Shown here piece by piece: positions 21,281 through 37,313 of a DNA stretch of 64,000 bases (position 1 is its first letter; each line of letters begins with the position of its first letter). This DNA is from Candidatus Binataceae bacterium (GTDB taxonomy: Bacteria; Desulfobacterota; Binatia; Binatales; Binataceae), in contig DASPOF010000108.1 in the NCBI GenBank assembly GCA_035626155.1, positions 45,286 to 109,285 of the forward strand, read 5' to 3'. The notes beneath the pieces are model-generated. The model made no database searches and was not told the DNA's origin. It saw only the letters and a list, made by a program, of their open reading frames with translations. The position numbers and the translations under genes were made by a program.

Positions 21281-22801
21281 GTGGGTAACAGCGATATCGA
21301 GGCCGCGCGCGTCTTCCACGAGATCACGAAGCACTCGTACACGAGCGTGCGGTCGTCGGCGCATTATCTCGACTGGGATATCAAACCGCTCCCGTACAAG
21401 ATTTATCCGGATGCGGCCGCAATCGCGCTGCCGCGCGATTTTGAGCTTTCCGCGATGCCGACGCTGCGCGCGATCGCCGGCGAGGCCGCCCCCTTCTCGG
21501 CGGAATCGATCGGACTCGAGAGTCTGACCCGGCTGCTCTTTTGCGGTGGCGGGCTGACGCACCGCTCGCGCGTCGGCGGCGAGGATTATCACTTCCGCGC
21601 TGCGGCGTCGGCCGGCGCGCTCTACCCGATTGAGATCTATGTCGCGGCGGGCGAGATCGATGGTCTGCAGGCGGGCCTGTATCATTTTTCGCCGGCGGAC
21701 CTGAAACTTCGCGGACTCAGGCGCGGCGATTGGCGGCGCACAATCGCGCGCGCGGCCGCGATGCGCCCGTCGCTCGCGAGCGCCCGCGCGGTGCTCCTGA
21801 TGACCGCGATCTACTGGCGAAGCGCGTGGAAGTACCGCGCCCGCGCCTACCGCTACTGCTTCTGGGATGCGGGCACGATTGCGGCCAACCTGCTCGCAGC
21901 CGGCTCGGCGGGCCAGGTTCCCGCCGAGATCGTCACCGCATTCGTGGACTCGGAACTCGAAGCATTGCTCGGAATCGACAGCCGGCGCGAAGGGCTGGCC
22001 TGCCTCGTCGCATTGGGGCGCAGCGAGACCGAGCCCGCCGAGCCGCCCGCGCTTGAGCCGTTCCCCTTCGAGGCGATCGCGCTCTCATCGCGCGAGGTCA
22101 CCTATGATGACCTGGTGAAGATTCACGCCGAGTCGCGCCTTAAGAGCCGGGAGGAAGTCGAGGCGGTGACGAGCGCGCGAATTGAGACGCGAGCGTTGCC
22201 CGCGCCAGGGAGCCAGCTTCGATTCGAAACGATCGACCCCGATCACTCCTCCCCGCTCGGCGCGACGATACTGCGCCGGGGCTCAACCCGCGTGTTCGCC
22301 GAGGCGCCCATCAGCCGCGAGGAGCTTGCGACGATCATGGCGGACTCAAGCGCGCATCCCCGCTCGGATTTCCCGCGTCTTACCAGCACCTACCTGATCG
22401 TCAATGGCGTCGAGGGGATGGAGCCGGGCGCTTACTACTATCGGCGCGAAAACGGATCCTTCGAGTTGCTCAAGCGGGGAAATTTTCGAGCCGACGCCGG
22501 CTACCTGTGTCTCGAACAGCCGCTCGGGATGAAATGCTCGGCGCTGGTCGTGTACGCGGCGAACCTGGATTCCGCCCTCGGCGCGCTGGGTAATCGCGCC
22601 TACCGCGATATGCACCTGGAGGCGGGCATCCTTGCCGGCCGCGCCTACCTGGCCGCCTACTCACTTGGCCGGGGCGCAACCGGGCTCACCTTCTATGACG
22701 ACGATACGACCAAATTTTTCGAACCGCACGCCGCGGGAATGAGCCCGCTCCTGATGGTCGCGCTGGGCGTCCCCCGCTCAGCCGCCGAAGATCAGACCTG
22801 A
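21281..22801 (+). CDS. SagB/ThcOx-type dehydrogenase (tandem nitroreductase-like domains)
   Basis: N-terminus ARVFHEITKHSY is typical of the SagB family. Two nitroreductase-fold halves are present (AGALYPIEIYV..., CLEQPLGMKCSALVVY..., GATGLTFYDD). GTG start. Confidence 0.75.
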   Translation: MGNSDIEAARVFHEITKHSYTSVRSSAHYLDWDIKPLPYKIYPDAAAIALPRDFELSAMPTLRAIAGEAAPFSAESIGLESLTRLLFCGGGLTHRSRVGGEDYHFRAAASAGALYPIEIYVAAGEIDGLQAGLYHFSPADLKLRGLRRGDWRRTIARAAAMRPSLASARAVLLMTAIYWRSAWKYRARAYRYCFWDAGTIAANLLAAGSAGQVPAEIVTAFVDSELEALLGIDSRREGLACLVALGRSETEPAEPPALEPFPFEAIALSSREVTYDDLVKIHAESRLKSREEVEAVTSARIETRALPAPGSQLRFETIDPDHSSPLGATILRRGSTRVFAEAPISREELATIMADSSAHPRSDFPRLTSTYLIVNGVEGMEPGAYYYRRENGSFELLKRGNFRADAGYLCLEQPLGMKCSALVVYAANLDSALGALGNRAYRDMHLEAGILAGRAYLAAYSLGRGATGLTFYDDDTTKFFEPHAAGMSPLLMVALGVPRSAAEDQT

Positions 22802-22971
22802 TCCCATCTCAACACGGCGCGACCACGCGAGGAGTCCCGCGCGCGGCCGCCGCGGTGGTCATTCATCCGGGGCGCGCTCGTTTGCCATGGCGATGACCGC
22901 GGATGAGGCCGATGCTGTTCATGTGAGCATCGCGCACGCCTGATGCGCACGTTCGCCCCGGTTTTCACCGA

Positions 22972-22987
22972 CGGCACCGCCCTTGCA
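22972..22987 (+). promoter_or_regulatory. Sigma-54 promoter candidate (cGGCAC-N5-TTGCA) upstream of the PII gene
   Basis: CGGCAC CGCCC TTGCA. GG and GC are at canonical -24/-12 spacing, about 80 nt upstream of ATG 23069. Confidence 0.55.
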
Positions 22988-23068
22988 AACATGATCAACG
23001 GGGCACCGGACGATTCAGCGATTCGGTGATGTGGGGGCAAAGCCACGGGGCGGGTGCGGTGAGAGGGC

Positions 23069-23407
23069 ATGAAGAAGATCGAAGCGATCATCAAACCCTT
23101 CACCCTCGATGCGGTCAGGATTGCGCTCGAAAAAGCCGGCATCAGCGGTCTCACCACGTCCGAAGTGAAAGGTTTGGCCCGCCAGAAGGGCCGTGCCGAG
23201 CCATCTAAAGGCTCGGACTACTCCATCGAGTTCAAGCCCAAGCTGAAGCTCGAGATCATCGTGCGCGATGAGCAGGCCGACGCGGTTGTGAGCGCGATTC
23301 TCCGCAAGTCCCGCATCGGGGGAGCCGGCGACGGCGACATCTGCGTGATGAGTGTCGAGGACGTCATCCGGATTCGGACCGACGAGCGCGGCGACGCAGC
23401 GATCTGA
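23069..23407 (+). CDS. glnB: PII family nitrogen regulatory protein (divergent GlnB/GlnK-like)
   Basis: MKKIEAIIKPFTLDAVRIALEKAGISGLTTSEVKG..RQKG...IRIRTDERGDAAI, 112 aa. See findings for deviations in the T-loop and signature motif. Confidence 0.88.
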   Translation: MKKIEAIIKPFTLDAVRIALEKAGISGLTTSEVKGLARQKGRAEPSKGSDYSIEFKPKLKLEIIVRDEQADAVVSAILRKSRIGGAGDGDICVMSVEDVIRIRTDERGDAAI

Positions 23408-23595
23408 CGGCGTCTCTCGCTCTCGCAATCATCTCGCCTTGCTCTGCGACGGTCGCGACACTGCTTGAGTGCCGGGCCGCTCCCTGCCAGCAACAGCCGT
23501 TGCGACCTGCAATATGTGATGCGTTCTGAATGGGCGGATGCTCATTTCCTCAGCATTTATCTGCTCGGTACTGCGAATGAACATTGCAATTTGCG

Positions 23596-23611
23596 TGGCA
23601 CCCTTCTTGCG
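23596..23611 (+). promoter_or_regulatory. Sigma-54 promoter candidate (TGGCAC-N5-TTGC) upstream of the APC permease
   Basis: TGGCAC CCTTC TTGCG, a perfect match to TGGCAC-N5-TTGC, about 90 nt upstream of ATG 23702. It is immediately preceded by the near-palindrome TGCAAtTTGCG (23585-23595). Confidence 0.6.
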
Positions 23612-23701
23612 CTTGGGCAGATTCGAGTCCGTGGCAGGCCGGCGCCTGCAAAGCGCGGACGCGTGGAATGCCGCCGATGTGGCGGAGACCAAGGAGGAGA
23701 G

Positions 23702-25375
23702 ATGGCTCAATCGAACGAAGCACCCAAGATGAAGGCGACCCTCGGGCTGACGGGCGTCACCGTCAACGCGATGGCGCTGATCGCCCCGGGAGCGTTTTTG
23801 TGGCTGACTTTCGCGGGGCAGGCCAACGAGGGATTCCCCTCAGGAATCGCGATGTGGTCAGGGATACTGGTGGCCCTACTGCTCGCGTATGCCACGGCGC
23901 TGTCTTATTCGGAGCTCGCGAAGCTGTATCCCGGTTCCGGCAGCTCTTACTTGTTCGCGGAGCAGGCGTTTTTGGGCAAGACGCACGCCTACCGCTTCGC
24001 GCGCATCGCCAAGTTCGTCATCGGATGGTCCTCGCATCTCTACTACTGGGTCTATCCGGCGGTCATGGTCGCCTCGATGGGCGTCATGATTGGCTACATC
24101 GTAGGAAACGTCGCTCCGGGGTTTATGAACTCGGCGGTCCCCGGCCCGGTTTTCATGGCCCTGATGGCGATACTCTCCGCGTATTTCGTGTCGTGGATTG
24201 CGTTTCGAGGGGTGCAGGGCTCGACGATGGTCAATCTTGCGATCAACGCAATTCAGATCGCGGCCTTGCTGTTCTTCTCGGCGCTCGCGATCGCCTACCG
24301 CGTGTCTCATCCGGCGGGATCCACGGGCCTGGGCCTCGATGCGAACGGGAACATCATCACCTCGACGGTGAGCTACGCGCTCACGGGCGACAACCCCGCG
24401 CATCCGAACGCGCTGTCGGTCATCCTGCCGCACCGCTTCGACTACATGATGTTGCAGGCGACGGTCGCGATTCTGCTGCTGGTCGGATTCGAGTCGATAA
24501 CCTCGCTCGGCGAAGAATCGAAGAACCCGACCCGGGACATCCCGCGCGGAGTTCTGCTCTCGCTGACGATCCAGGGACTGTTCTGCTACATGATCGAGTA
24601 CTACGCCGCGAACTACATGCTGAGCAGCGCATACAGCCTCGCGGCCGCAAAGGGCTCGGCCGCTCCGCTGGGCGATATGATGATGATCGTGGGCAACGCG
24701 CTGCTCGGCGGGCACGGTCAGGCGTTCATGCTGATCGAGGCGCTGACGGTCTTTCTCGCACTGATCGGCACCACGCTCAGTTGCATCAACACCGGCGCGC
24801 GCGTGACGTACGCGATGGGTCGAGATGAGGAAGTGGCGGAGCATTTCGGACTGCTCCACGGTCAAAACCTGACGCCGCATCGCGCGATCTGGACGCTCGC
24901 GACGATCTCGGCGGTGCTGGGCGCATTCGGCGCGCTGTACTACTTCGCCGGCGGCTCCGCCCCCGATGACAAGACTATCGCGACGCTGCCCCACTCGATC
25001 TGGTACGCGATGGGAATGAGTTCCAACGCGGCGCTCTCCGCGCTGCCCAATGGATGGCTGCTGATCACGCTGATATCCAACTTCGGCACCTTCATCCTGT
25101 ACGGGCTCACCAACGTCATCTGCATGGTCGCGTTCTACGAGCATCACGAATTCAGCGGGTTCCGGCACATGGTGGTGCCGATTTTCGGGGCGTTCGCCAA
25201 CTTCGCTTGCATGGCCTTCTACGTAATTGGCCCCCTGGAGGGGATCGGCAGCGTGAAGGAGCCGTTGATGGCGGTAGCGCTTTCGGTGGTCTGGGGCGTG
25301 TACGGGGCGATCTACTTCGTTCGCAACTCGAAGAAGAGGGGCAAGGACACCATCCTGGTCGCCAAGCCGGTGTGA
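23702..25375 (+). CDS. APC superfamily permease (amino acid/amine transporter)
   Basis: 12+ hydrophobic segments, LSYSELAKLYPGSGSSYLFA, FESITSLGEESKNPTRDIPRG. Start moved from track 23465 to ATG 23702, which is preceded by AAGGAGGAGAG. Confidence 0.85.
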   Translation: MAQSNEAPKMKATLGLTGVTVNAMALIAPGAFLWLTFAGQANEGFPSGIAMWSGILVALLLAYATALSYSELAKLYPGSGSSYLFAEQAFLGKTHAYRFARIAKFVIGWSSHLYYWVYPAVMVASMGVMIGYIVGNVAPGFMNSAVPGPVFMALMAILSAYFVSWIAFRGVQGSTMVNLAINAIQIAALLFFSALAIAYRVSHPAGSTGLGLDANGNIITSTVSYALTGDNPAHPNALSVILPHRFDYMMLQATVAILLLVGFESITSLGEESKNPTRDIPRGVLLSLTIQGLFCYMIEYYAANYMLSSAYSLAAAKGSAAPLGDMMMIVGNALLGGHGQAFMLIEALTVFLALIGTTLSCINTGARVTYAMGRDEEVAEHFGLLHGQNLTPHRAIWTLATISAVLGAFGALYYFAGGSAPDDKTIATLPHSIWYAMGMSSNAALSALPNGWLLITLISNFGTFILYGLTNVICMVAFYEHHEFSGFRHMVVPIFGAFANFACMAFYVIGPLEGIGSVKEPLMAVALSVVWGVYGAIYFVRNSKKRGKDTILVAKPV

Positions 25376-25400
25376 CGCTTTAGGTGTCGCGAGAAATTGT

Positions 25401-25444
25401 GGGGCGGGCCGCCGCAAAGGCGGCTCGCCCCTTCGGTCGTTTTA
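25401..25444 (+). terminator. Rho-independent terminator after the APC permease
   Basis: 13-bp stem: GGGGCGGGCCGCC pairs with GGCGGCTCGCCCC (one G-U pair), loop GCAAA, followed by TTCGGTCGTTTT. Confidence 0.6.
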
Positions 25445-25494
25445 GGAAAGTGCAAGTCTCTGCACGTGAACTGATTCGAGGATCGCCCGCGCGA

Positions 25495-26328
25495 ATGGAC
25501 CCAGCTTCCGACGAATCGCCCCTCATATCGACGCAGTTCGAACTAGCGTTGCTCTCCGACGTGGGCACGGACCGCCCCGACAACGAGGACTCCTGCGCCC
25601 ACTTCATCGAGGCTTCCGACAGCGCCGTGTTCGCGGTTGCCGACGGGGTGGGCGGCTACGAGGGGGGCGAGGTTGCAAGCGCGATGGCGGTGCAGGTCGT
25701 GCTCGATGCCTACCGGGAGAGCCCGCCCGCATGGGGACCCGGAAAACGCCTGACGCGCGCGGTCCAGCAGGCCAACATCGAAATCCACAACAAAGCCATC
25801 GCGGTGCCCGAATTGCGGCGGATGGGCACCACGCTCACCGCGGTCGCGGTCGAAAAGGGGATGCTCTCGGCGGCTCACGTCGGCGATTGCCGGCTGTACC
25901 TCGTCCGCCGCAATAAGATCCTTCAGCTCACCAAAGATCACACGATGGTCGGGGAGCGGGTGCGGATGGGAATACTCAGCGAGGCCAGCGCGCGGACGCA
26001 TCCCGAACGTTCGGTCCTGACCCGCAGCCTCGGCCGCGAACTCATAGTGCCGGTCGATCGGATCTCGATGCCGCTGGTCAAGGATGACCGCCTGATTCTG
26101 TGTACCGACGGCCTCTACGGCGTGCTCGAAGATCATGATCTCGAGCACCTGACGCGCGAGATCGAGGCGGCCCCCGCCTGCCGCCAGCTCATCGATGCCG
26201 CCAACCAGCGCGGCACCGCGGACAATCTCACGGTCGCCGTGTTCAAGATGCACGCCGAGACCGGCTTCGATCCGACCCCGACCGGATGGCGCGCGCGGCT
26301 GAGCGGCTTCCTGCGGCGCGGCCGATAG
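25495..26328 (+). CDS. PP2C-family Ser/Thr protein phosphatase
   Basis: LSDVGTDRPDNEDS, FAVADGVGGYEGGEVAS, MGTTLTAV, AHVGDCRLYL, LILCTDGLYGVL, ADNLTVAVF. Start at ATG 25495; the track GTG at 25384 overlaps the terminator. Confidence 0.88.
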   Translation: MDPASDESPLISTQFELALLSDVGTDRPDNEDSCAHFIEASDSAVFAVADGVGGYEGGEVASAMAVQVVLDAYRESPPAWGPGKRLTRAVQQANIEIHNKAIAVPELRRMGTTLTAVAVEKGMLSAAHVGDCRLYLVRRNKILQLTKDHTMVGERVRMGILSEASARTHPERSVLTRSLGRELIVPVDRISMPLVKDDRLILCTDGLYGVLEDHDLEHLTREIEAAPACRQLIDAANQRGTADNLTVAVFKMHAETGFDPTPTGWRARLSGFLRRGR

Positions 26329-26449
26329 AGCGTGAGGCCAAATCGACTCAGTTTGGCAGCGGCGGTAACAGGATATACTCAGTTGCTTCGCTCGCGCGCC
26401 GGATGTTAGCGTCCGCTCCCGGAGCCCGGCCCCGAAAGCCCAACCCAGC

Positions 26450-27466
26450 ATGCGCGAAGTCAGCGTCGGCGAGACCCTCGATCAGTACAAGCTCACCAGC
26501 GTGATCGCGCGCAGCGGGATGGCCTCCATCTTCGAGGCCACCGACCTGCTCGACGGCCGCACGGTCGCGATCAAGGTCCCCTACATGCAGTTCGAAAGCG
26601 ACGTGGTCTTCTACGGCCGCTTCCAGCGCGAGGAAGAAATCGGCCAGCGCCTTGACCACCCCAACATCATCAAGGTCCTCACCCCGAAGCATAAGAGCCG
26701 CATGTACATCGCGATGGAGTTCGTCAAGGGGACCTCGCTGCGCGCCATCATGCGCGATGCGCATCCGCTTGCCACCGAGAAGGCTCTCGACCTGGCCCGG
26801 CAAATCTGCGACGCGCTCGTCTATATGCACAAAAACGGCGTGGTCCATCGCGATATCAAGCCCGAGAACATCCTCGTCACCGACGAGGGCCTCGTGAAGA
26901 TAATGGACTTCGGGATCGCGCTCGATGCGTCTGCGCGGCGGCTTACGTGGTCCGGACTGTCCTCGACGATCGGCACGCCCGATTACATGGCGCCCGAGCA
27001 GGTCAGCGGCCGGCGCGGCGACGCGCGCACCGATATCTACTCGCTTGGCGTGATCCTGTACGAGATGCTGACCGCAAATCTGCCGTACACGGGCACCAAC
27101 GTGTACAACATGATGCGGGCGAAGACGAGCCAGGATCCGCAGCCACCCAGCGCCTACCAGCCGGACATCGACCCGAAGCTCGAGGAGATCGTCCTCCACG
27201 CGATCGCGCGCGCGCCGCGCGACCGCTATGCGAGCGCGGCCGAGATGCTCGAGGACCTGCGGGACCCGTCCCGGGTCCAGCCGATGGGCCGCGCACGCGG
27301 GCTGCGTCCGCAAAACTTGAGACTGCAGAAGTTGCGCCGCGCGCTCGGGATCGTGCTGTTCTTTGGATCGCTCGCGGCCTTTTTCGTTTTCCTCATCTGG
27401 CTCGCCAACCGCTACCCGGCGGCTCCGAGCCAGCCGCGCCGCTCATATCGCGGGGAGGTGAAATGA
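26450..27466 (+). CDS. Hanks-type Ser/Thr protein kinase with a single C-terminal membrane anchor
   Basis: VAIKV (catalytic Lys), HRDIKPENIL, DFGIA, GTPDYMAPEQ. C-terminal TM helix ALGIVLFFGSLAAFFVFLIWLA, then only about 20 residues. Confidence 0.9.
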   Translation: MREVSVGETLDQYKLTSVIARSGMASIFEATDLLDGRTVAIKVPYMQFESDVVFYGRFQREEEIGQRLDHPNIIKVLTPKHKSRMYIAMEFVKGTSLRAIMRDAHPLATEKALDLARQICDALVYMHKNGVVHRDIKPENILVTDEGLVKIMDFGIALDASARRLTWSGLSSTIGTPDYMAPEQVSGRRGDARTDIYSLGVILYEMLTANLPYTGTNVYNMMRAKTSQDPQPPSAYQPDIDPKLEEIVLHAIARAPRDRYASAAEMLEDLRDPSRVQPMGRARGLRPQNLRLQKLRRALGIVLFFGSLAAFFVFLIWLANRYPAAPSQPRRSYRGEVK

Positions 27467-28908
27467 TGCGCGCACTACGCCGTCCGATTCGGCTGATTGC
27501 TTCCGCAGCGGCGCTGCTTGCCGCGCTGGTCCTCGCCGCGAACCCCGCGCACGCGCAGCCTGCCCTGGCTGAAGGGCCTCTGGCTCAGTCGCTCAATATG
27601 GCCTGGGTGCTGGTCGCAGGGTTCCTCGTGATGTTCATGCAGGCCGGGTTCGCAATGCTCGAGACCGGGTTCACGCGCGCCAAGAACGCGGTCAATACGA
27701 TGGCGATGAACCTGGTCATTTACCCGATCGGGGTGATTGGCTTCTGGCTGACCGGCTACGGGTTCATGATGGGCGGCGTCGCACGATGGCCATCGCTCGG
27801 CGCGGCCCAAATCGGCCATCACGAACTTGCCGTCGCGATTGGCGCCCATACGTTCGGGCTGATCGGTCTCAGCAAGTTCGCGCTGGTGAGCGTCGCTCAC
27901 GATCCGGCGAGTCTCGCGATGTTCCTTTTCGCAGTGGTCTTCATGGATACCGCCGCGACGGTGCCGACCGGCGCGATGGCGGAGCGGTGGAAGTTCTCGG
28001 CTTTCTTCATCTACGGGCTTTTCATGTCGATGTTCCTCTATCCGCTCTACGGCAACTGGGTGTGGGGCGGAGGATGGCTCTCGCAACTGGGCGCGAACCT
28101 CGGACTCGGTCACGGTCACGTGGATTTTGCCGGATCGTCGGTCGTGCACATGACCGGCGGCGTCGCGGCGCTCGCGGGAGCGTGGATGCTCGGTCCCCGC
28201 ATCGGCAAGTTCCGGCGCGACGGCGCGATCGGCGCGCTGCCGGGGCACAACCTGCCGATGGCGGTGATTGGAACGTTGATCCTCGCCTTCGGATGGTTCG
28301 GGTTCAACGCCGGCTCGTCGCTTGCCGCCTCCGACCCGCGAATCGGCGTGATCGCGGCGAATACGATGTTGGCTTCGTCCGCCGGCGCCGTGACGGCGCT
28401 GTGTTACCTGTGGCAGCGCTTCGGCCGGCCCGACATCGCGATGGCCTGCAATGGACTGCTCGGCGGACTCGTCGCCATTACCGCTCCGTGCGCGTTCGTG
28501 ACGCCGGTCGCCGCGGTGCTCATCGGCACAGTAGCGGGTCTGCTCGTAGTGTGGTCAGTGCTCGCGCTGGAGCGGCGCCTGCGCATCGACGATCCCGTCG
28601 GCGCAATACCGGTCCACGGGGTTTGCGGGCTTTGGGGCGCGCTCGCGCTGGGAATTTTCGCCGACGGATCGTACGGCGAGGGATGGAACGGCGTTGCCGG
28701 TCCGGTGCGCGGCCTGCTCTATGGCGATGCGGGCCAGTTCGCGGCGCAGCTCATCGGGGTCACGATGAACTTCGTCGTCGTGTTCGGCCTCGCGCTGCTG
28801 TTCTTCTGGATTGTCGAGCGCATCATGGGCAACCGCGTGCTGGTGGAGGTCGAATTCACCGGTCTCGATTCGCTCGAAATGGGCACCGACGCCTACCCGA
28901 ACGTGTGA
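27463..28908 (+). CDS. amt: Ammonium transporter (Amt family) with signal peptide
   Basis: MMRALRRPIRLIASAAALLAALVLAANPAHA signal peptide. FLVMFMQAGFAMLETGFTRAKN, VHMTGGVAALAGAWMLGPRIG, AIPVHGVCGLWGALALGIFA. ATG 27463 overlaps the kinase stop (ATGA) and GGAGG lies upstream. The track ORF from 26947 is a spurious 5' extension. Confidence 0.92.
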   Translation: MMRALRRPIRLIASAAALLAALVLAANPAHAQPALAEGPLAQSLNMAWVLVAGFLVMFMQAGFAMLETGFTRAKNAVNTMAMNLVIYPIGVIGFWLTGYGFMMGGVARWPSLGAAQIGHHELAVAIGAHTFGLIGLSKFALVSVAHDPASLAMFLFAVVFMDTAATVPTGAMAERWKFSAFFIYGLFMSMFLYPLYGNWVWGGGWLSQLGANLGLGHGHVDFAGSSVVHMTGGVAALAGAWMLGPRIGKFRRDGAIGALPGHNLPMAVIGTLILAFGWFGFNAGSSLAASDPRIGVIAANTMLASSAGAVTALCYLWQRFGRPDIAMACNGLLGGLVAITAPCAFVTPVAAVLIGTVAGLLVVWSVLALERRLRIDDPVGAIPVHGVCGLWGALALGIFADGSYGEGWNGVAGPVRGLLYGDAGQFAAQLIGVTMNFVVVFGLALLFFWIVERIMGNRVLVEVEFTGLDSLEMGTDAYPNV

Positions 28909-28990
28909 CGAGCCCGAGGAGCGCGCCGTCGCATTGGCTCCTCTCCGGGACTAGGCGAGGGATTGGAGAGACGGACTTCGCCGCGGATAC

Positions 28991-30469
28991 TTACTTAGAA
29001 CTTTCCGGCGGCGATGGCAGGGGGAAGTCCGGCGGCGGAGGGGTGCCGGAGTGCACCGCCTGCGTGGCGGCTCCTGCGAGGCTTAAATACCAGTCGCTCG
29101 GTAACTGACATCCGTCCGCATCGAGCGTGACGAACGAGTATCCGGGCGGGATTCCCGCCACGGGCGCCTGCGCGGCTTGCCGCAGCATCTTGAACATCGC
29201 CGTGCCCTCGTTGAGTTCATCGAACATCGCGCCGTACAGCATCGTTGCTCCCGCCCCCAGCGCGTCATACACCTGCCGCCAGTAGAAGAGCCCGCAGCGG
29301 CGCGGAATCTGGTTGCTGATCGCCAGAGCCGGATCTCCCAACGCACGCTCAGTGTTGGCAAAAGAGTAGCCGGGGAACACGACGGGCATGTAGTCCACGC
29401 CGAGCGCACGCGTGGCCGCCAAATCCGGCTGAGTCACTCTGCTGCTGTAGTTATCCGCCGAGAGATCGTCGTAATAACGTCCAACCGCCCAGGGGCTAAG
29501 CACGCCGAGCCGCTTCCAGACCCGGCGCCAGCCGCGATCGGGCGACGCATCGTTCGTCCCCGTCCGCCAGTACGATGGCACGCCGCCGAGCACGGTGATG
29601 CCGCCATATTTCGCGCTCGCCTTGCCGAGCGCATCGAGCAAGCTCTCAGTACCGGCCGGCGTCAGCGGTCGTCCCGCGAAGCCGAGCCCCCACACCCCGA
29701 GCAGCGGATGGCCGCGATGGTGCAGGTAGGCCGGGCTGCTCGTGATTCCGCCGCGTTCCAGCCGCGCCCAATCCTGCGCGACCGTGATCAGCCTGCCCTC
29801 GGGCAGGCCGGTTAAGTCGTACATAACGAAGAACACCCGGCCGTTGTCTTCCGCCGCCTTGCGGACGTTGGCCAAGACTAGGTTGCGCCCGTACGCCTCA
29901 GCCTTGTCCAGGAGGTCCACCGAGAAGCGCTGGAGCGCGACGCCATCCAGCCCGTATTGCTGCATCCAGGCGAAATGCAGTTCCACGGTCGCCGGATTCG
30001 CGTTGCTGTACAGGTTCACCGGATTTCCGGCGGCATCGAGCATGCCGGTCGTGCACTGATCGGCAACCGGATATGCGGACGCATCCGGCAGCATGTCCAC
30101 GGTCGGGTCGGCGCCCATCATCCAGTGCCACCATCCGAGTTGGGTGCCGTCGCCCGGGCAGTTGAACCAGCCCTGGTAACCCATGATGAGCTTGCCGGTG
30201 AGCGTGGTGGGATCGACGCTGTCGACGGGATTGGCGCGATGTCCATCAGCGGCGCGCGCGAGCCGCTGCGTGCCCTGCGCGTGCGCGTGGCCGCAAGCGA
30301 TCGCGAGCGTACACCCGAGGGTGCCGAAAACCAGCAGCCAAAGTCGGTTGCGTCGTCGAGAAGTTATAATCTTAGCCCCCCAAATTGCGCTAGCATTCGC
30401 GCGACGCAAGCCCGCGGATTCTGTTACAGCCCGGAGCAGGACCGTACCAGCTTGCCGGGGCAAACGCAC
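28991..30469 (-). CDS. Secreted glycoside-hydrolase-like protein (TIM-barrel-like; family uncertain)
   Basis: Signal-like segment RRRNRLWLLVFGTLGCTLAIACGHAHA. Motifs GYQGWFNCPGDG..WWHW and AMFDELNEGTAMFK recall GH99/GH71-like enzymes. The true start is probably downstream of the track ATG (a TTG around 30400) and is not resolved. Confidence 0.45.
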   Translation of the reverse strand: MRLPRQAGTVLLRAVTESAGLRRANASAIWGAKIITSRRRNRLWLLVFGTLGCTLAIACGHAHAQGTQRLARAADGHRANPVDSVDPTTLTGKLIMGYQGWFNCPGDGTQLGWWHWMMGADPTVDMLPDASAYPVADQCTTGMLDAAGNPVNLYSNANPATVELHFAWMQQYGLDGVALQRFSVDLLDKAEAYGRNLVLANVRKAAEDNGRVFFVMYDLTGLPEGRLITVAQDWARLERGGITSSPAYLHHRGHPLLGVWGLGFAGRPLTPAGTESLLDALGKASAKYGGITVLGGVPSYWRTGTNDASPDRGWRRVWKRLGVLSPWAVGRYYDDLSADNYSSRVTQPDLAATRALGVDYMPVVFPGYSFANTERALGDPALAISNQIPRRCGLFYWRQVYDALGAGATMLYGAMFDELNEGTAMFKMLRQAAQAPVAGIPPGYSFVTLDADGCQLPSDWYLSLAGAATQAVHSGTPPPPDFPLPSPPESSK

Positions 30470-30631
30470 ATCAGGGGGGCGCCAGGGACGACGGCACGAT
30501 CGGCGCGCCTGTTCTCGGTGCGTAGCAAGACAATTTGTTGCGCGCGAAATCCCGGTTAAGCGAAAAGTTCCGACAGGCGGCGCGCGGCTTTAATAAAAGT
30601 TCGTTGTCCTGACTTTGTGCCTCAATAACCC

Positions 30632-30660
30632 TTGACAGGGATCGCCCTTCCCGTTACGTT
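30632..30660 (+). promoter_or_regulatory. Sigma-70-type promoter candidate: TTGACA, 17-nt spacer, TACGTT
   Basis: Perfect -35 hexamer at 30632-30637, 17-nt spacer, -10-like TACGTT at 30655-30660. It lies 28 nt upstream of ATG 30688. Confidence 0.35.
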
Positions 30661-30687
30661 CATCGAGCCCACAACGAAAATTGCCTT

Positions 30688-31247
30688 ATGAAGTTAGGCA
30701 GCGATTCGCCCGAACTCGACGCGATCGACCTGCAGATTCTCAATGTCTTGCAGGAGCACGGTCGAATTCCGCACGTCAAGCTTGCCGAGCAGGTCGGCCT
30801 GTCGGCGCCGTCGGTTATCGAACGCGTCAAGAAGCTCGAGGACACCGGCATCATCACCGGCTATCACGCATCGGTGGATGCGCGCCGGCTGGGCAAGGAC
30901 GTAACCGCCTTCATCGGCGTTTCGATCGCGCACCCCAAAGCGGTCCTCCTCTTCGAGCAGGCCATCGATCAGATCGACGACGTGCTCGAATGTCATCACG
31001 TCACCGGCCAGCACAGCGTGTTGCTGAAGGTTAAGACCGACAACACTTCATCGCTCGAGCGGCTCATCAGCACCATCCGTTCGATCGAAGGAGTGGCGAG
31101 GACGGAGACGATGGTGGTGCTTTCGACGCACATCGAGCGCGTCATGATTCCAGTCCACGCCACTGACGATGCCGGCGGCGAGCTGCCCAACGGCCGGCGC
31201 CATCGCCACGGCGCCATGAAAGGCCCGCTTGCGGATTCCAGGCGGGT

Positions 31248-31251
<4 letters not shown>
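30688..31251 (+). CDS. Lrp/AsnC family transcriptional regulator (with about 30-aa C-terminal extension)
   Basis: [50 protein letters not shown] (HTH_AsnC), then a RAM/AsnC_trans_reg-like domain. The stop overlaps the gltB start (ATGA). Confidence 0.88.
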
Positions 31252-35810
<4,559 letters not shown>

Positions 35811-35867: not shown

Positions 35868-37313
35868 ATGGGTAAGATCACGGGCTTCATGGAGATCAAG
35901 CGCGAGACGCCGGGGCGCCGCGCGGTCGGCGAACGCCTGAAGGACTGGCGCGAATTCGATCTCAAAATGCCCGAGGACAAGCTGCGCGCCCAGGGTGCGC
36001 GATGCATGGACTGCGGGATCCCCTTCTGCCACAAGGGATGTCCGCTCGGGAATATCATTCCCGACTGGAACGACATGCTCTACCGCGGGCGCTGGCGCGA
36101 CGCGATCGAGCGGCTGCACTCGACCAATAACTTCCCGGAGTTTACCGGGCGCGTATGCCCCGCTCCGTGCGAGGAAGCCTGCGTCCTCAACATCAACAAC
36201 GACCCCGTCACCATCAAGCTCATCGAGAAGAGCATCATCGATCACGCGTGGGCCGAGGGATGGGTCGCGCCGCAGCCGGCCGCGCAGCCGAGCGGCAAGC
36301 GCGTCGCGGTGGTCGGTTCGGGCCCGTCGGGTCTTGCCTGCGCGCAGCAGCTTGCGCGCGCGGGCCACGCGGTGACGATCTATGAGCGCGCCGACCGGCC
36401 CGGCGGCCTGCTCACCTACGGCATTCCCGACTTCAAGCTCGAAAAATCGATGGTCAACCGGCGCGTCGAGCAGTTGCGCGCCGAGGGCGTCCAGTTTGTC
36501 ACGGGTTGCCGCGTCGGAATCGACATCCACGCGGACCAGTTGCGCCAGAAGCACGACGCGATCTGCCTCACGATGGGCGCGACCAAGTCGCGCGACCTTT
36601 CCATCCCGGGGCGCGAGTTGAAGGGAATCCATTTCGCGATGGAATTCCTCCCCCAGCAGAACCGCCGCAACTTCGGCGACGTGATCGATCCGGGAACCGC
36701 AATCAGCGCGCAGGGCAAGCGCGTCGTGATCCTCGGCGGCGGCGACACCGGCTCGGACTGTCTCGGAACGTCGAACCGCCAGGGCGCGCTCAGCGTGCAT
36801 CAGTTCGAATTGCTGCCGATGCCGCCCGAACGCCGCACTCCCGAAATGCCCTGGCCCGACTGGCCGATGATCAATCGCACCTCGAGTTCGCACGAGGAGG
36901 GCGTCATCCGCGACTGGAGCATCGACACGAAACGCTTCATCGGCGAAAACGGCGCAGTCAAGAAACTCCATGCCGTGCGCCTGAACTGGAAGCGCGACAA
37001 CGGGCGCATGGTGATGGAGGCGATACCGGCCAGCGACTTCGAGCTCGAGTGCGACCTCGTGCTGCTCGCGCTTGGCTTCCTCGGCCCCGATCCTGAGGGC
37101 ATCATCACCGAGCTTGGCCTCAAGCTCGACGCGCGCAGCAATATCGCGACCGAGAATTACATGTCGAGCGTTCCGGGCGTGTTCGCCGGAGGCGATGCGC
37201 GACGCGGCCAGTCGCTGGTCGTGTGGGCGATATGGGAAGGGCGCGAATGCGCGCGCGCGTGCGATGCCTGGCTGATGGGCCGGACGTTCCTTCCTACGAG
37301 CCCGGAAATCTGA
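35868..37313 (+). CDS. gltD: Glutamate synthase small (NADPH) subunit
   Basis: [22 protein letters not shown], dinucleotide folds [14 protein letters not shown] and [13 protein letters not shown]. Confidence 0.93.

Follow-up and report, generated by a model that had tools for sequence, protein, structure and literature searches.

A conserved kinase, PP2C phosphatase, permease and ammonium transporter locus suggests phosphorylation-based control of nitrogen uptake in Binataceae and other soil bacteria

Why would a bacterial ammonium transporter (Amt) gene be encoded head to tail with the genes for a Ser/Thr protein kinase and a PP2C protein phosphatase? Control of Amt activity in bacteria is textbook PII/GlnK biology; as far as we know, only plants and fungi have been found to control ammonium transporters by phosphorylation, and sensor Amts have been described only as fusions to histidine kinases or cyclases. 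The question is raised by a stretch of 64,000 nucleotides (nt) from a Candidatus Binataceae bacterium (assembly GCA_035626155.1, contig DASPOF010000108.1, positions 45,286 to 109,285), referred to below as the window, in whose own coordinates all positions are given. The PP2C, kinase and Amt genes are arranged head to tail there, 3′ of an APC-superfamily permease gene, and about 150 loci from at least three phyla share the overall arrangement. Judged from sequence and gene order, this conserved arrangement of kinase, phosphatase, Amt and permease suggests an undescribed phosphorylation-based control of bacterial nitrogen uptake. Its elements in the window are as follows (lengths in amino acids, aa).

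23596-23611, + strand: sigma-54 (-24/-12) promoter motif TGGCACCCTTCTTGCG, 88-103 nt 5′ of the permease start
23699-25375, + strand: APC-superfamily permease, 558 aa, the conserved partner of the PP2C/kinase pair (Pfam AA_permease, E 2.7e-9)
25401-25431, + strand: G+C-rich intercistronic hairpin between permease and PP2C, perfect 13-bp stem, 5-nt loop
25495-26328, + strand: cytoplasmic PP2C (PPM) Ser/Thr phosphatase, metal-binding motifs intact (Pfam PP2C_2, E 8e-19)
26450-27466, + strand: PknB-like Hanks Ser/Thr kinase, 338 aa (Pfam Pkinase, E 1.6e-49)
27454-27458, + strand: Shine-Dalgarno sequence GGAGG for amt, inside the final kinase codons, read from the sequence
27463-28908, + strand: ammonium transporter (Amt), 481 aa (Pfam Ammonium_transp, E 1.9e-111)

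A scan of one genome per species yielded 79 loci with relatives of the kinase, onto which the window proteins were mapped by tblastn. They comprise 68 Binataceae-type loci (Binatia type; kinase identity 57-82%, plus one frameshifted locus at 45%) and 11 loci from metagenome-assembled genomes (MAGs) of Verrucomicrobiia, Tepidisphaeraceae and other Planctomycetota (kinase 41-53% identical), to which, along with the metagenome loci added next, we refer as the PVC type, for the Planctomycetota/Verrucomicrobiota group. A metagenome scan with one PP2C-kinase fusion as query added 80 further loci on soil or peat contigs, which cannot be counted as independent species. MAG or metagenome contigs make up many of the loci, in part with frameshifts, and taxon labels are those of the depositors. 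For loci with 5 kb of sequence on both sides, an amt gene is found no more than 5 kb from the kinase in 74 of 79 (50/51 Binatia-type, 5/6 PVC genome and 19/22 metagenome loci), and the permease, which a first-pass annotation of the window had not mentioned, is linked as tightly, in 75 of 79 (48/51, 6/6 and 21/22, respectively). Conservation of the linkage beyond this genome was a check that the same annotation had set in advance, and these counts bear it out.

Within the Binatia type, where the linkage is found in about 60 Binataceae-type species, amt is directly 3′ of the kinase in 61 of 65 evaluable loci and the PP2C gene adjoins the kinase in 58 of 66. The permease adjoins the PP2C gene in 44/59 Binatia-type, 7/8 PVC genome and 39/44 metagenome loci. 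Four loci were scored as having no amt as the next gene (L051, L052, L054 and L077); L077 has a partial amt match further 3′, and we rejected L052, along with L076, as amt-less exceptions, amt being present in both but frameshifted in long-read assemblies. Outside Binatia the gene order varies, from permease, PP2C-kinase and amt in series (in some loci followed by PII and a second amt), through a divergent amt-permease pair facing PP2C-kinase, to PP2C-kinase followed by porin, amt and PII, yet the gene set stays constant. In addition, the phosphatase and kinase are fused in frame in 8 of the 11 PVC-type genome loci and in 80/80 metagenome loci. Genomes carry few amt genes, and by our own estimate chance adjacency of amt should be about 1% or less. 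That the linkage survives rearrangement of order and strand, gene fusion, about 50% divergence and the separation of three phyla is strong evidence for a functional link.

The kinase stop codon TGA (27464-27466) and the amt start codon ATG (27463-27465) overlap as ATGA, with GGAGG just 5′, as the first-pass annotation had read them; a second in-frame amt ATG follows at 27466. A 4-nt ATGA overlap by itself is ordinary operon anatomy, and what exceeds chance is the conservation of the amt-kinase linkage, not the overlap alone. An ATGA or GTGA overlap in the amt frame is found in 52/64 linked Binatia-type loci, even in the most distant, whose kinase is 58% identical; 8 more have ATGA with a frame offset. 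Its retention in 52/64 loci points to coupled, roughly stoichiometric synthesis, as in amtB-glnK. The extracytoplasmic kinase tail WLANRYPA...RSYRG(E/Q)x(K/R) (27407-27463 in the window) is highly conserved in Binataceae, and its terminal YRG(E/Q) codons serve also as the amt ribosome-binding site. Among three inspected loci the C-terminal YRG(E/Q)x(K/R) is retained only where amt is the next gene, and it is lost in the amt-less L051 and L054; for these reasons, part of the apparent protein conservation of the tail is probably a constraint at the nucleotide level.

The sigma-54 motif marks a probable start of this transcription unit. The motif (TGGCAC-N5-TTGC) precedes the permease in 52 of 55 Binatia-type loci, 90-150 nt upstream, compared with 1/61 for PP2C and 0/65 for the kinase, which places the unit in a nitrogen-type regulon. 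Motif number over the whole window is not above chance (13 found vs 21.8 expected). A sigma-70 promoter scan gave 0 sites, and an Rfam scan of 22000-31500 found no known RNA element at E ≤ 1. The likely transcription unit is thus sigma-54 promoter, permease, hairpin, PP2C, kinase and amt, starting probably 5′ of the permease and not, as had been annotated, after a good terminator at 25401-25444. The hairpin in that annotation is real: one occurs at the same position, at -23 to -39 kcal/mol and with different stem sequences, in 58/60 related loci, as expected of a real element. In the window it folds locally at -34 kcal/mol, and compared with shuffled sequences the intergenic region scores z = -2.8. 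Its designation as a good terminator fared less well, with a weak T tract (TTCGGTCGTTTT) and no call from a consensus terminator scan. Candidate roles are attenuator, partial terminator or mRNA 3′ stabiliser; the hairpin would set a lower level of the downstream genes. The spacer 3′ of amt shows no clear terminator (z = -0.13). Against NCBIfam, the permease itself has only weak matches to amino-acid transporter models, far under their cut-offs.

The kinase scores 169 bits against Pfam PF00069 (cut-off 31.7) and is a Hanks-type Ser/Thr kinase, with VAIK (residues 39-42), HRDIKPEN (133-140), DFG (153-155) and GTPDYMAPE (175-183) all in place; its glycine-rich loop is degenerate (ARSGMASIF) yet conserved throughout the family. 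A single hydrophobic segment (residues 298-319; 27341-27406), preceded by KLRR, is followed by an outside tail of 19 residues (NRYPAAPSQPRRSYRGEVK), a length that falls to just 6-9 residues in the fused PVC-type proteins. No PASTA domains are present: the NCBIfam Stk1/PknB model NF033483 scores 308 bits against a cut-off of 450 and aligns only over profile positions 7-273 of 563. The nearest solved structures are PknB, StkP and PknA. Homologues number thousands, the closest being 338-339 aa long, and hallmarks outside the generic kinase motifs (SRSGMAxI, KVPYMQFESD and GxRGDxRTD) are conserved across phyla; by these sequence features the module kinases are one distinct orthologous family. The phosphatase carries the motifs DNED, ADGVGG, GDCR, TDGL and ADNLT, belongs to the PP2C/PPM family (PF13672, 68 bits; PF00481, 57 bits) and scores 222 bits with the NCBIfam Stp1/IreP equivalog, slightly below the 230 cut-off. 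The spacer between the two genes is 121 nt (26329-26449), and 26329-26452 shows no unusual structure against shuffles (z = +0.48). All of this agrees with the first-pass description of a kinase with complete Hanks motifs, one C-terminal transmembrane (TM) helix, about 20 outside residues and no sensor domain, 121 nt 3′ of a PP2C with intact metal-binding motifs.

Kinase and PP2C are an antagonistic pair, which in other phyla is a single polypeptide: the fused open reading frame is about 600 aa long, in the order PP2C, kinase, TM helix. Fusion into one reading frame implies that the two act on a common target, and the lack of an extracytoplasmic domain implies that the input to the kinase must come from a partner. 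In some Binataceae an extra gene of about 690 aa lies between PP2C and kinase (L004:5805-7904, L022:1734-3782, also L006, L033 and L035); its product, an AA_permease_2-domain protein extended at the C terminus by about 180 cytoplasmic aa, is a third transporter in the unit.

What kind of Amt, then, is coupled to this kinase? A signal peptide and 11 TM helices precede a short C-terminal region in the window protein, which is a member of the Amt/Mep/Rh family (PF00909, 373 bits; TIGR00836, 387 bits vs a 343 cut-off). Among solved structures it is closer to the sensor proteins Ks-Amt5 (6EU6, E 5.7e-70) and Sd-Amt1 (8QJ3, 5.5e-64) than to any transporter (Af-Amt1, 1.3e-47; AmtB, about 1e-44). Ammonium receptors bind ammonium without translocating it and have their transducer domain fused to the Amt. 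They are defined by a pair of ammonium sites within the membrane, N1 and N2, for which the signature is Q-x6-E-x15-N-x2-D-[FT]-x54-60-T-x2-[ST] (Pfluger et al.; PMC5764959, PMC11152129). Assimilatory Amts of cluster 1 (AmtB, Af-Amt1) have a Tyr (Af-Amt1 Y27) and a Ser (Af-Amt1 S251) at the cytoplasmic exit, and cluster 2 holds the receptors together with the plant AMT1 transporters (PMC11152129). The window Amt has Q60, E67, N83, T166 and T169, corresponding to Q24, E31, N47, T109 and T112 of the sensor Amts and including all four N1 ligands (E67, N83, T166, T169). In place of the cluster-1 Tyr and Ser it has Glu67 (the Ks-Amt5 E31 position) and Asn330 (the Sd-Amt1 N269 position), so that it also shares the cytoplasmic-exit Asn of the sensors. 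On these residues the linked Amt is classed with the plant AMT1/sensor Amts, not with AmtB. The Q-E-N-x-x-T-T pattern with the exit Asn is found in every Binatia-type linked Amt and about half of the PVC-type ones; the second, PII-adjacent Amt of PVC-type loci bears the exact Tyr/Ser hallmark of cluster 1.

Aligned to Ks-Amt5, the window Amt also has intact transport motifs, namely the selectivity Trp and Ser (W201, S285), the Phe gate (F160, F281) and the twin His (H229, H385). Since every one is retained in a receptor-like Amt, the simplest interpretation is a dual transporter/receptor role, as proposed for AMT1. Of the 150 closest Amt cluster representatives, many are multidomain proteins of 700-2800 aa. 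Among single diplonemid transcripts, three encode two Amt domains with a C-terminal protein kinase and two encode two Amt domains with an adenylate/guanylate cyclase domain, and we count these as putative Rosetta-stone fusions in favour of an Amt-kinase partnership. The entries P0213, P0201, P0161, P0144 and P0147 come from Namystynia karyoxenos and Artemidia motanka transcriptomes. Between the SagB-like gene described below and the permease, where the window has a PII gene, many Binataceae encode a second Amt of about 41% identity (L008:2733-4028, L024, L026, L029, L030 and about 12 more loci); its N1/N2 signature is near-complete (Q-E-G-D-T-T-S), and about 35 aa extend its C terminus (EYVVTGDDGCPK...).

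Taken at the level of gene content, the locus is a conserved nitrogen-uptake module made of a sigma-54 promoter, permease, hairpin, PP2C, anchored kinase and co-translated Amt. We tentatively favour a model, to which we assign slightly less than an even chance, in which this module is a membrane phospho-switch coupled to transporters with the Amt as the likely input. The lone TM helix of the kinase would tether the kinase/PP2C pair at the membrane beside the transporters, where the pair most likely joins the Amt trimer, and possibly the permease, in one complex. Lacking a sensor domain, the kinase would depend on the AMT1/sensor-type Amt to report its ammonium occupancy or flux, and would adjust the phosphorylation of proteins for nitrogen uptake accordingly. 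The transporters themselves are candidate targets (in the C-terminal region of the Binataceae Amt, Ser/Thr466 before GLD and Thr/Ser475), and possibly PII or other regulators are too. Gene order, the overlap, intact domains, conservation across phyla, the PP2C-kinase fusion and the Amt subtype are read directly from the sequences; that the proteins form a complex, which way the signal runs and what is phosphorylated are inferences. In its workings the module would resemble the Amt-histidine-kinase ammonium receptors, but split and with a Ser/Thr kinase, and it would be the bacterial equivalent of plant CIPK23/ABI1-AMT1, acting alongside PII. The narrower claim within this model, that Amt and the sensor-less kinase/PP2C pair form a split ammonium transceptor in which the transporter supplies the ligand-binding module for a Ser/Thr phospho-switch, is possible, and we would on balance lean against it. 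The first-pass annotation had likewise suggested that the kinase uses the transporter as its sensor; the AMT1/sensor character of the Amt lends this some support.

Several observations weigh against a sensing Amt at the centre of the module. Only 5 of the 7 signature residues are present, the N2 Asp/Thr being replaced by I86/Y87, and the spacing is 78 instead of 54-60. About half of the PVC-type linked Amts do not have the Q-E-N-x-x-T-T pattern, translational overlap is rare in that type (4/29 loci), and in L051 and L054 the kinase is truly without amt. Given that it keeps every transport motif, the Amt may simply be a transporter, and with a permease linked as tightly as amt, the Amt need not be the key partner. 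Finally, a column scan of Amts found no cytoplasmic Ser/Thr that is conserved in all linked and absent from unlinked proteins.

On the same scan we rejected a phosphosite common to all linked Amts, whether C-terminal or in a cytoplasmic loop, positions 466 and 475 being specific to Binataceae. The C-terminal region of Binatia-type linked Amts reads EVE[WF][ST]GLD[AS]LEMG[ST]DAYP, with Ser/Thr at position 466 in 98% and at position 475 in 100%. Among PVC-linked Amts both positions have Ser/Thr in 0%, and position 466 is Asp/Glu in 48% of these and in 58% of unlinked Amts. The alternation of acidic residues and Ser/Thr resembles a phosphomimetic pattern specific to one lineage. Across 94 diverse representative Amts, however, the residue before GLD varies widely (E 19, A 15, L 9, Q 8, D 7, S/T 7), and we therefore treat a switch from acidic residue to Ser/Thr as a weak hint only. 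A plant-type T460 phospho-switch was rejected as well: from a by-eye alignment to the plant sequence, we take the equivalent of AtAMT1;1 T460 (GMD-x-T) to be Leu, the window having GLD-S-L and its Binataceae orthologues GLD-A-L, without Thr.

The other candidate substrate lies 4 kb 5′ of amt:

22972-22987, + strand: possible sigma-54 motif CGGCACCGCCCTTGCA, about 80 nt 5′ of PII, one mismatch to TGGCAC-N5-TTGCW
23069-23407, + strand: PII (GlnB/GlnK family) gene, a divergent copy and neighbour of the module (Pfam P-II, E 3e-25)

Given the chance-level motif number over the whole window, this copy is assigned by position only. A motif 5′ of PII is found in 1/10 Binatia-type loci; in PVC-type loci, 13/30 have one 5′ of the PII gene that precedes the second amt. 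With amt flanked by the kinase (5′) and a convergent gene (3′), the locus is not a canonical amtB-glnK unit, and there is no second amt or second PII within the 64-kb window. The first-pass reading of the kinase and phosphatase as standing in place of glnK did not hold up: PII is encoded two genes 5′ of the PP2C gene in the same orientation, and a PII gene lies within 8 kb in 15/22 evaluable metagenome loci, often directly 3′ of an amt. The presence of PII genes inside the neighbourhood indicates that the module works alongside PII. In the Binatia type a PII gene is found within 8 kb in just 6 of 51 evaluable loci.

The window PII scores under both NCBIfam equivalog cut-offs. Its T-loop is GLARQKGRAEPSKGSDY and its B-loop IGGAGDGDI, where orthologues in 9 Binataceae loci have GFGRQKGRTELYRGSEY and TGRIGDGKI; Ser49 and Tyr51 are retained, Arg47 is changed to Lys and Lys90 to Asp. 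Two further T-loop differences from the orthologues are F/G36-37 to L/A and LYR to PSK, and this copy may be degenerating or gaining a new function. The window PII and every Binataceae orthologue have Ser49, the orthologues within YRGSEY as in cyanobacteria, and the large kinase-amt-PII-amt group has PII with the canonical YRGAEY. Among 48 module-linked PIIs, position 49 is S in 23, A in 14 and another residue in 11; Ser49 was accordingly rejected as a universal target (Ala or other in 25/48), and a switch of the cyanobacterial PII-Ser49 type cannot be the general function. Tyr51 is retained in 43/48, so classical uridylylation or adenylylation of PII could operate. The Amt and the nearby PII had both been put forward as substrates of the kinase, and neither is established by these comparisons.

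If the Amt were purely a substrate, the kinase would shut or open it, and perhaps the permease, by C-terminal phosphorylation, PP2C would reverse this, and the input would be a cytoplasmic metabolite or another protein. Plants provide a precedent whose components are likewise a kinase, a PP2C and a cluster-2 AMT1 (PMC9516733, PMC7737296, PMC11152129). The retained transport motifs fit as well, as do the Ser/Thr at 466 and 475 in the Binatia type, where other Amts have mostly Asp/Glu or hydrophobic residues. We nevertheless consider this explanation unlikely: the two positions are never Ser/Thr in PVC-type linked Amts, the T460 position presumably holds Leu, the kinase has no recognisable cytoplasmic sensing domain either, and an enzyme and its substrate need no stoichiometric, translationally coupled synthesis. 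If the pair instead modified the PII T-loop at Ser49, as a GlnD analogue anchored beside a PII-plugged Amt, the closeness of PII in the window, in 9 Binataceae loci and in most evaluable metagenome loci would be explained, as would the cyanobacterial-like YRGSEY of Binataceae PIIs. In cyanobacteria the PII phosphatase is a PP2C (PphA) and the PII kinase is still unidentified (PMC11863333). The 25 linked PIIs without Ser49, among them those of the kinase-amt-PII-amt group, the scarcity of PII near Binatia-type modules and the availability of Tyr51 for classical modification make this improbable.

The permease could alternatively be the true partner, as an APC transporter for an organic nitrogen compound, with the Amt merely co-regulated in a nitrogen-scavenging operon. 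It is near the kinase at least as often as amt, it usually adjoins the PP2C gene, and a further AA_permease_2 gene is inserted between PP2C and kinase in some Binataceae. In Binatia-type loci, however, the overlap couples the kinase to amt while the conserved hairpin parts permease from PP2C, and in L066 the kinase is flanked by amt genes with no permease or PP2C match in the 8 kb 5′. The permease also has a large variable insertion in the loop after its fifth hydrophobic segment, which in a by-eye topology we read as periplasmic and hence out of reach of the kinase; we give this explanation little credence. Bacterial kinases often have many substrates, and one could suppose no direct functional link at all, the pair being a general PknB/PstP-like one, for growth or envelope, that shares an operon or regulon with nitrogen transporters. 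The closest relatives of the kinase (PknB, StkP, PknA) and of the phosphatase (Stp1/IreP) would fit. Such an explanation is very improbable in view of a linkage to amt and permease that survives three phyla, rearrangement, fusion and about 50% divergence, the absence of PASTA or other envelope-sensing domains, and a kinase that forms a distinct orthologous family with its own motifs.

How does the favoured phospho-switch model compare with characterised systems? In Ks-Amt5 (Amt with a histidine kinase) and Sd-Amt1 (Amt with HAMP and a diguanylate cyclase), an Amt module is paired with a cytoplasmic signalling enzyme, as it is here (PMC5764959, PMC11152129). The transducer in our case is a separate, co-translated, single-pass Hanks kinase with PP2C in place of a fused histidine kinase or cyclase, the N2 residues Asp50/Thr51 are Ile/Tyr, and the C-terminal region is short and AmtB-like. 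Plant AMT1 with CIPK23/CIPK15 and the PP2C ABI1 (PMC9516733, PMC7737296) offers three components that match the window kinase, PP2C and cluster-2-type Amt, and control of yeast Mep2 by the kinase Npr1 (PMC4852598) is comparable, with the short conserved C-terminal region as a plausible control point. The bacterial genes differ in forming one transcription unit with a membrane-anchored kinase, the kinases are unrelated beyond the Hanks fold, and sites 466 and 475 are confined to Binataceae. In amtB-glnK (PMC10433425) a regulator is likewise co-transcribed and translationally coupled with amt under nitrogen (sigma-54) control, implying a stoichiometric membrane complex; here the coupled gene is a kinase, and PII is encoded two genes 5′ or, in PVC-type loci, next to a second, AmtB-type Amt.

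The GlnH-GlnX-PknG-GarA/OdhI pathway of Actinobacteria (PMC6069109, PMC9769921) also has a sensor-less Hanks kinase that is encoded with membrane and periplasmic nutrient-sensing partners and governs nitrogen/glutamate metabolism, and the likeness extends to the gltB-gltD genes and Lrp-type regulator 2 kb 3′ of the window module. PknG, however, is soluble, with TPR and rubredoxin domains, and instead of transporters it is partnered by a solute-binding protein and a four-helix membrane protein; unlike GarA/OdhI, no FHA-domain protein or other obvious kinase substrate is encoded among the window genes scanned. PknB/PstP and Stk1/Stp1 are the best sequence matches of both enzymes and share the phosphatase gene before the kinase gene and the single kinase TM helix, but the window kinase has no PASTA domains and almost no extracellular part, and its context is nitrogen uptake instead of cell division or wall. 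The module belongs to none of the systems to which we likened it, whether sensor Amts, plant and yeast control, amtB-glnK or PknG. GlnK and the Ks-Amt5 histidine kinase are the only regulatory or signalling partners mentioned in a 2023 review of prokaryotic Amts (PMC10433425). Our targeted literature search found no paper linking a bacterial Hanks kinase to amt, in keeping with the first-pass annotation, which knew of no characterised bacterial example.

If the split-transceptor reading is right, this would be the first bacterial Amt control by, or signalling through, Ser/Thr phosphorylation. The complex would belong to a new class in bacterial nutrient signalling, one that is widespread among Binatota, Verrucomicrobiota and Planctomycetota of soils and parallels the plant kinase/PP2C/AMT1 circuit. 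A module of this kind in abundant uncultured soil lineages would add a third regulatory logic for Amt and would point to a transporter as a concrete kind of input for the 'orphan' bacterial Hanks kinases that have no sensor. It would also bear on the origin of the plant AMT1 kinase/PP2C circuit, as AMT1 and the window Amt share a subtype. For annotation, presence of the module kinase family would serve as a marker of nitrogen-uptake loci. The hypothesis is directly testable with heterologously expressible proteins.

Beyond the module and PII, the immediate neighbourhood in the window contains the following genes.

21281-22801, + strand: SagB-type double nitroreductase-like gene, 506 aa, two SagB/nitroreductase-type domains
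28991-30469, - strand: 492-aa protein with a signal-peptide-like N terminus, convergent with amt, no Pfam/NCBIfam match
30688-31251, + strand: Lrp/AsnC-type regulator
31248-35810, + strand: gltB
35868-37313, + strand: gltD

The SagB-like gene is syntenic 5′ of the module in most Binataceae loci. Among related loci the interval between amt and lrp varies from 0.2 to about 6 kb, which indicates that the gene at 28991-30469 is not part of the conserved module. The stop codon of the Lrp/AsnC regulator overlaps the gltB start by 4 nt, and the lrp-gltB juxtaposition is retained in most Binataceae loci, where the match coordinates abut; this suggests a dedicated regulator co-translated with glutamate synthase. 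In Verrucomicrobia-type loci (L071:9382-10686, L151, L153, L157 and L158), an OmpL-like beta-barrel porin (BBP2) gene lies directly 5′ of amt-glnK and 3′ of the fused PP2C-kinase gene, and its product may be an outer-membrane entry route for ammonium.

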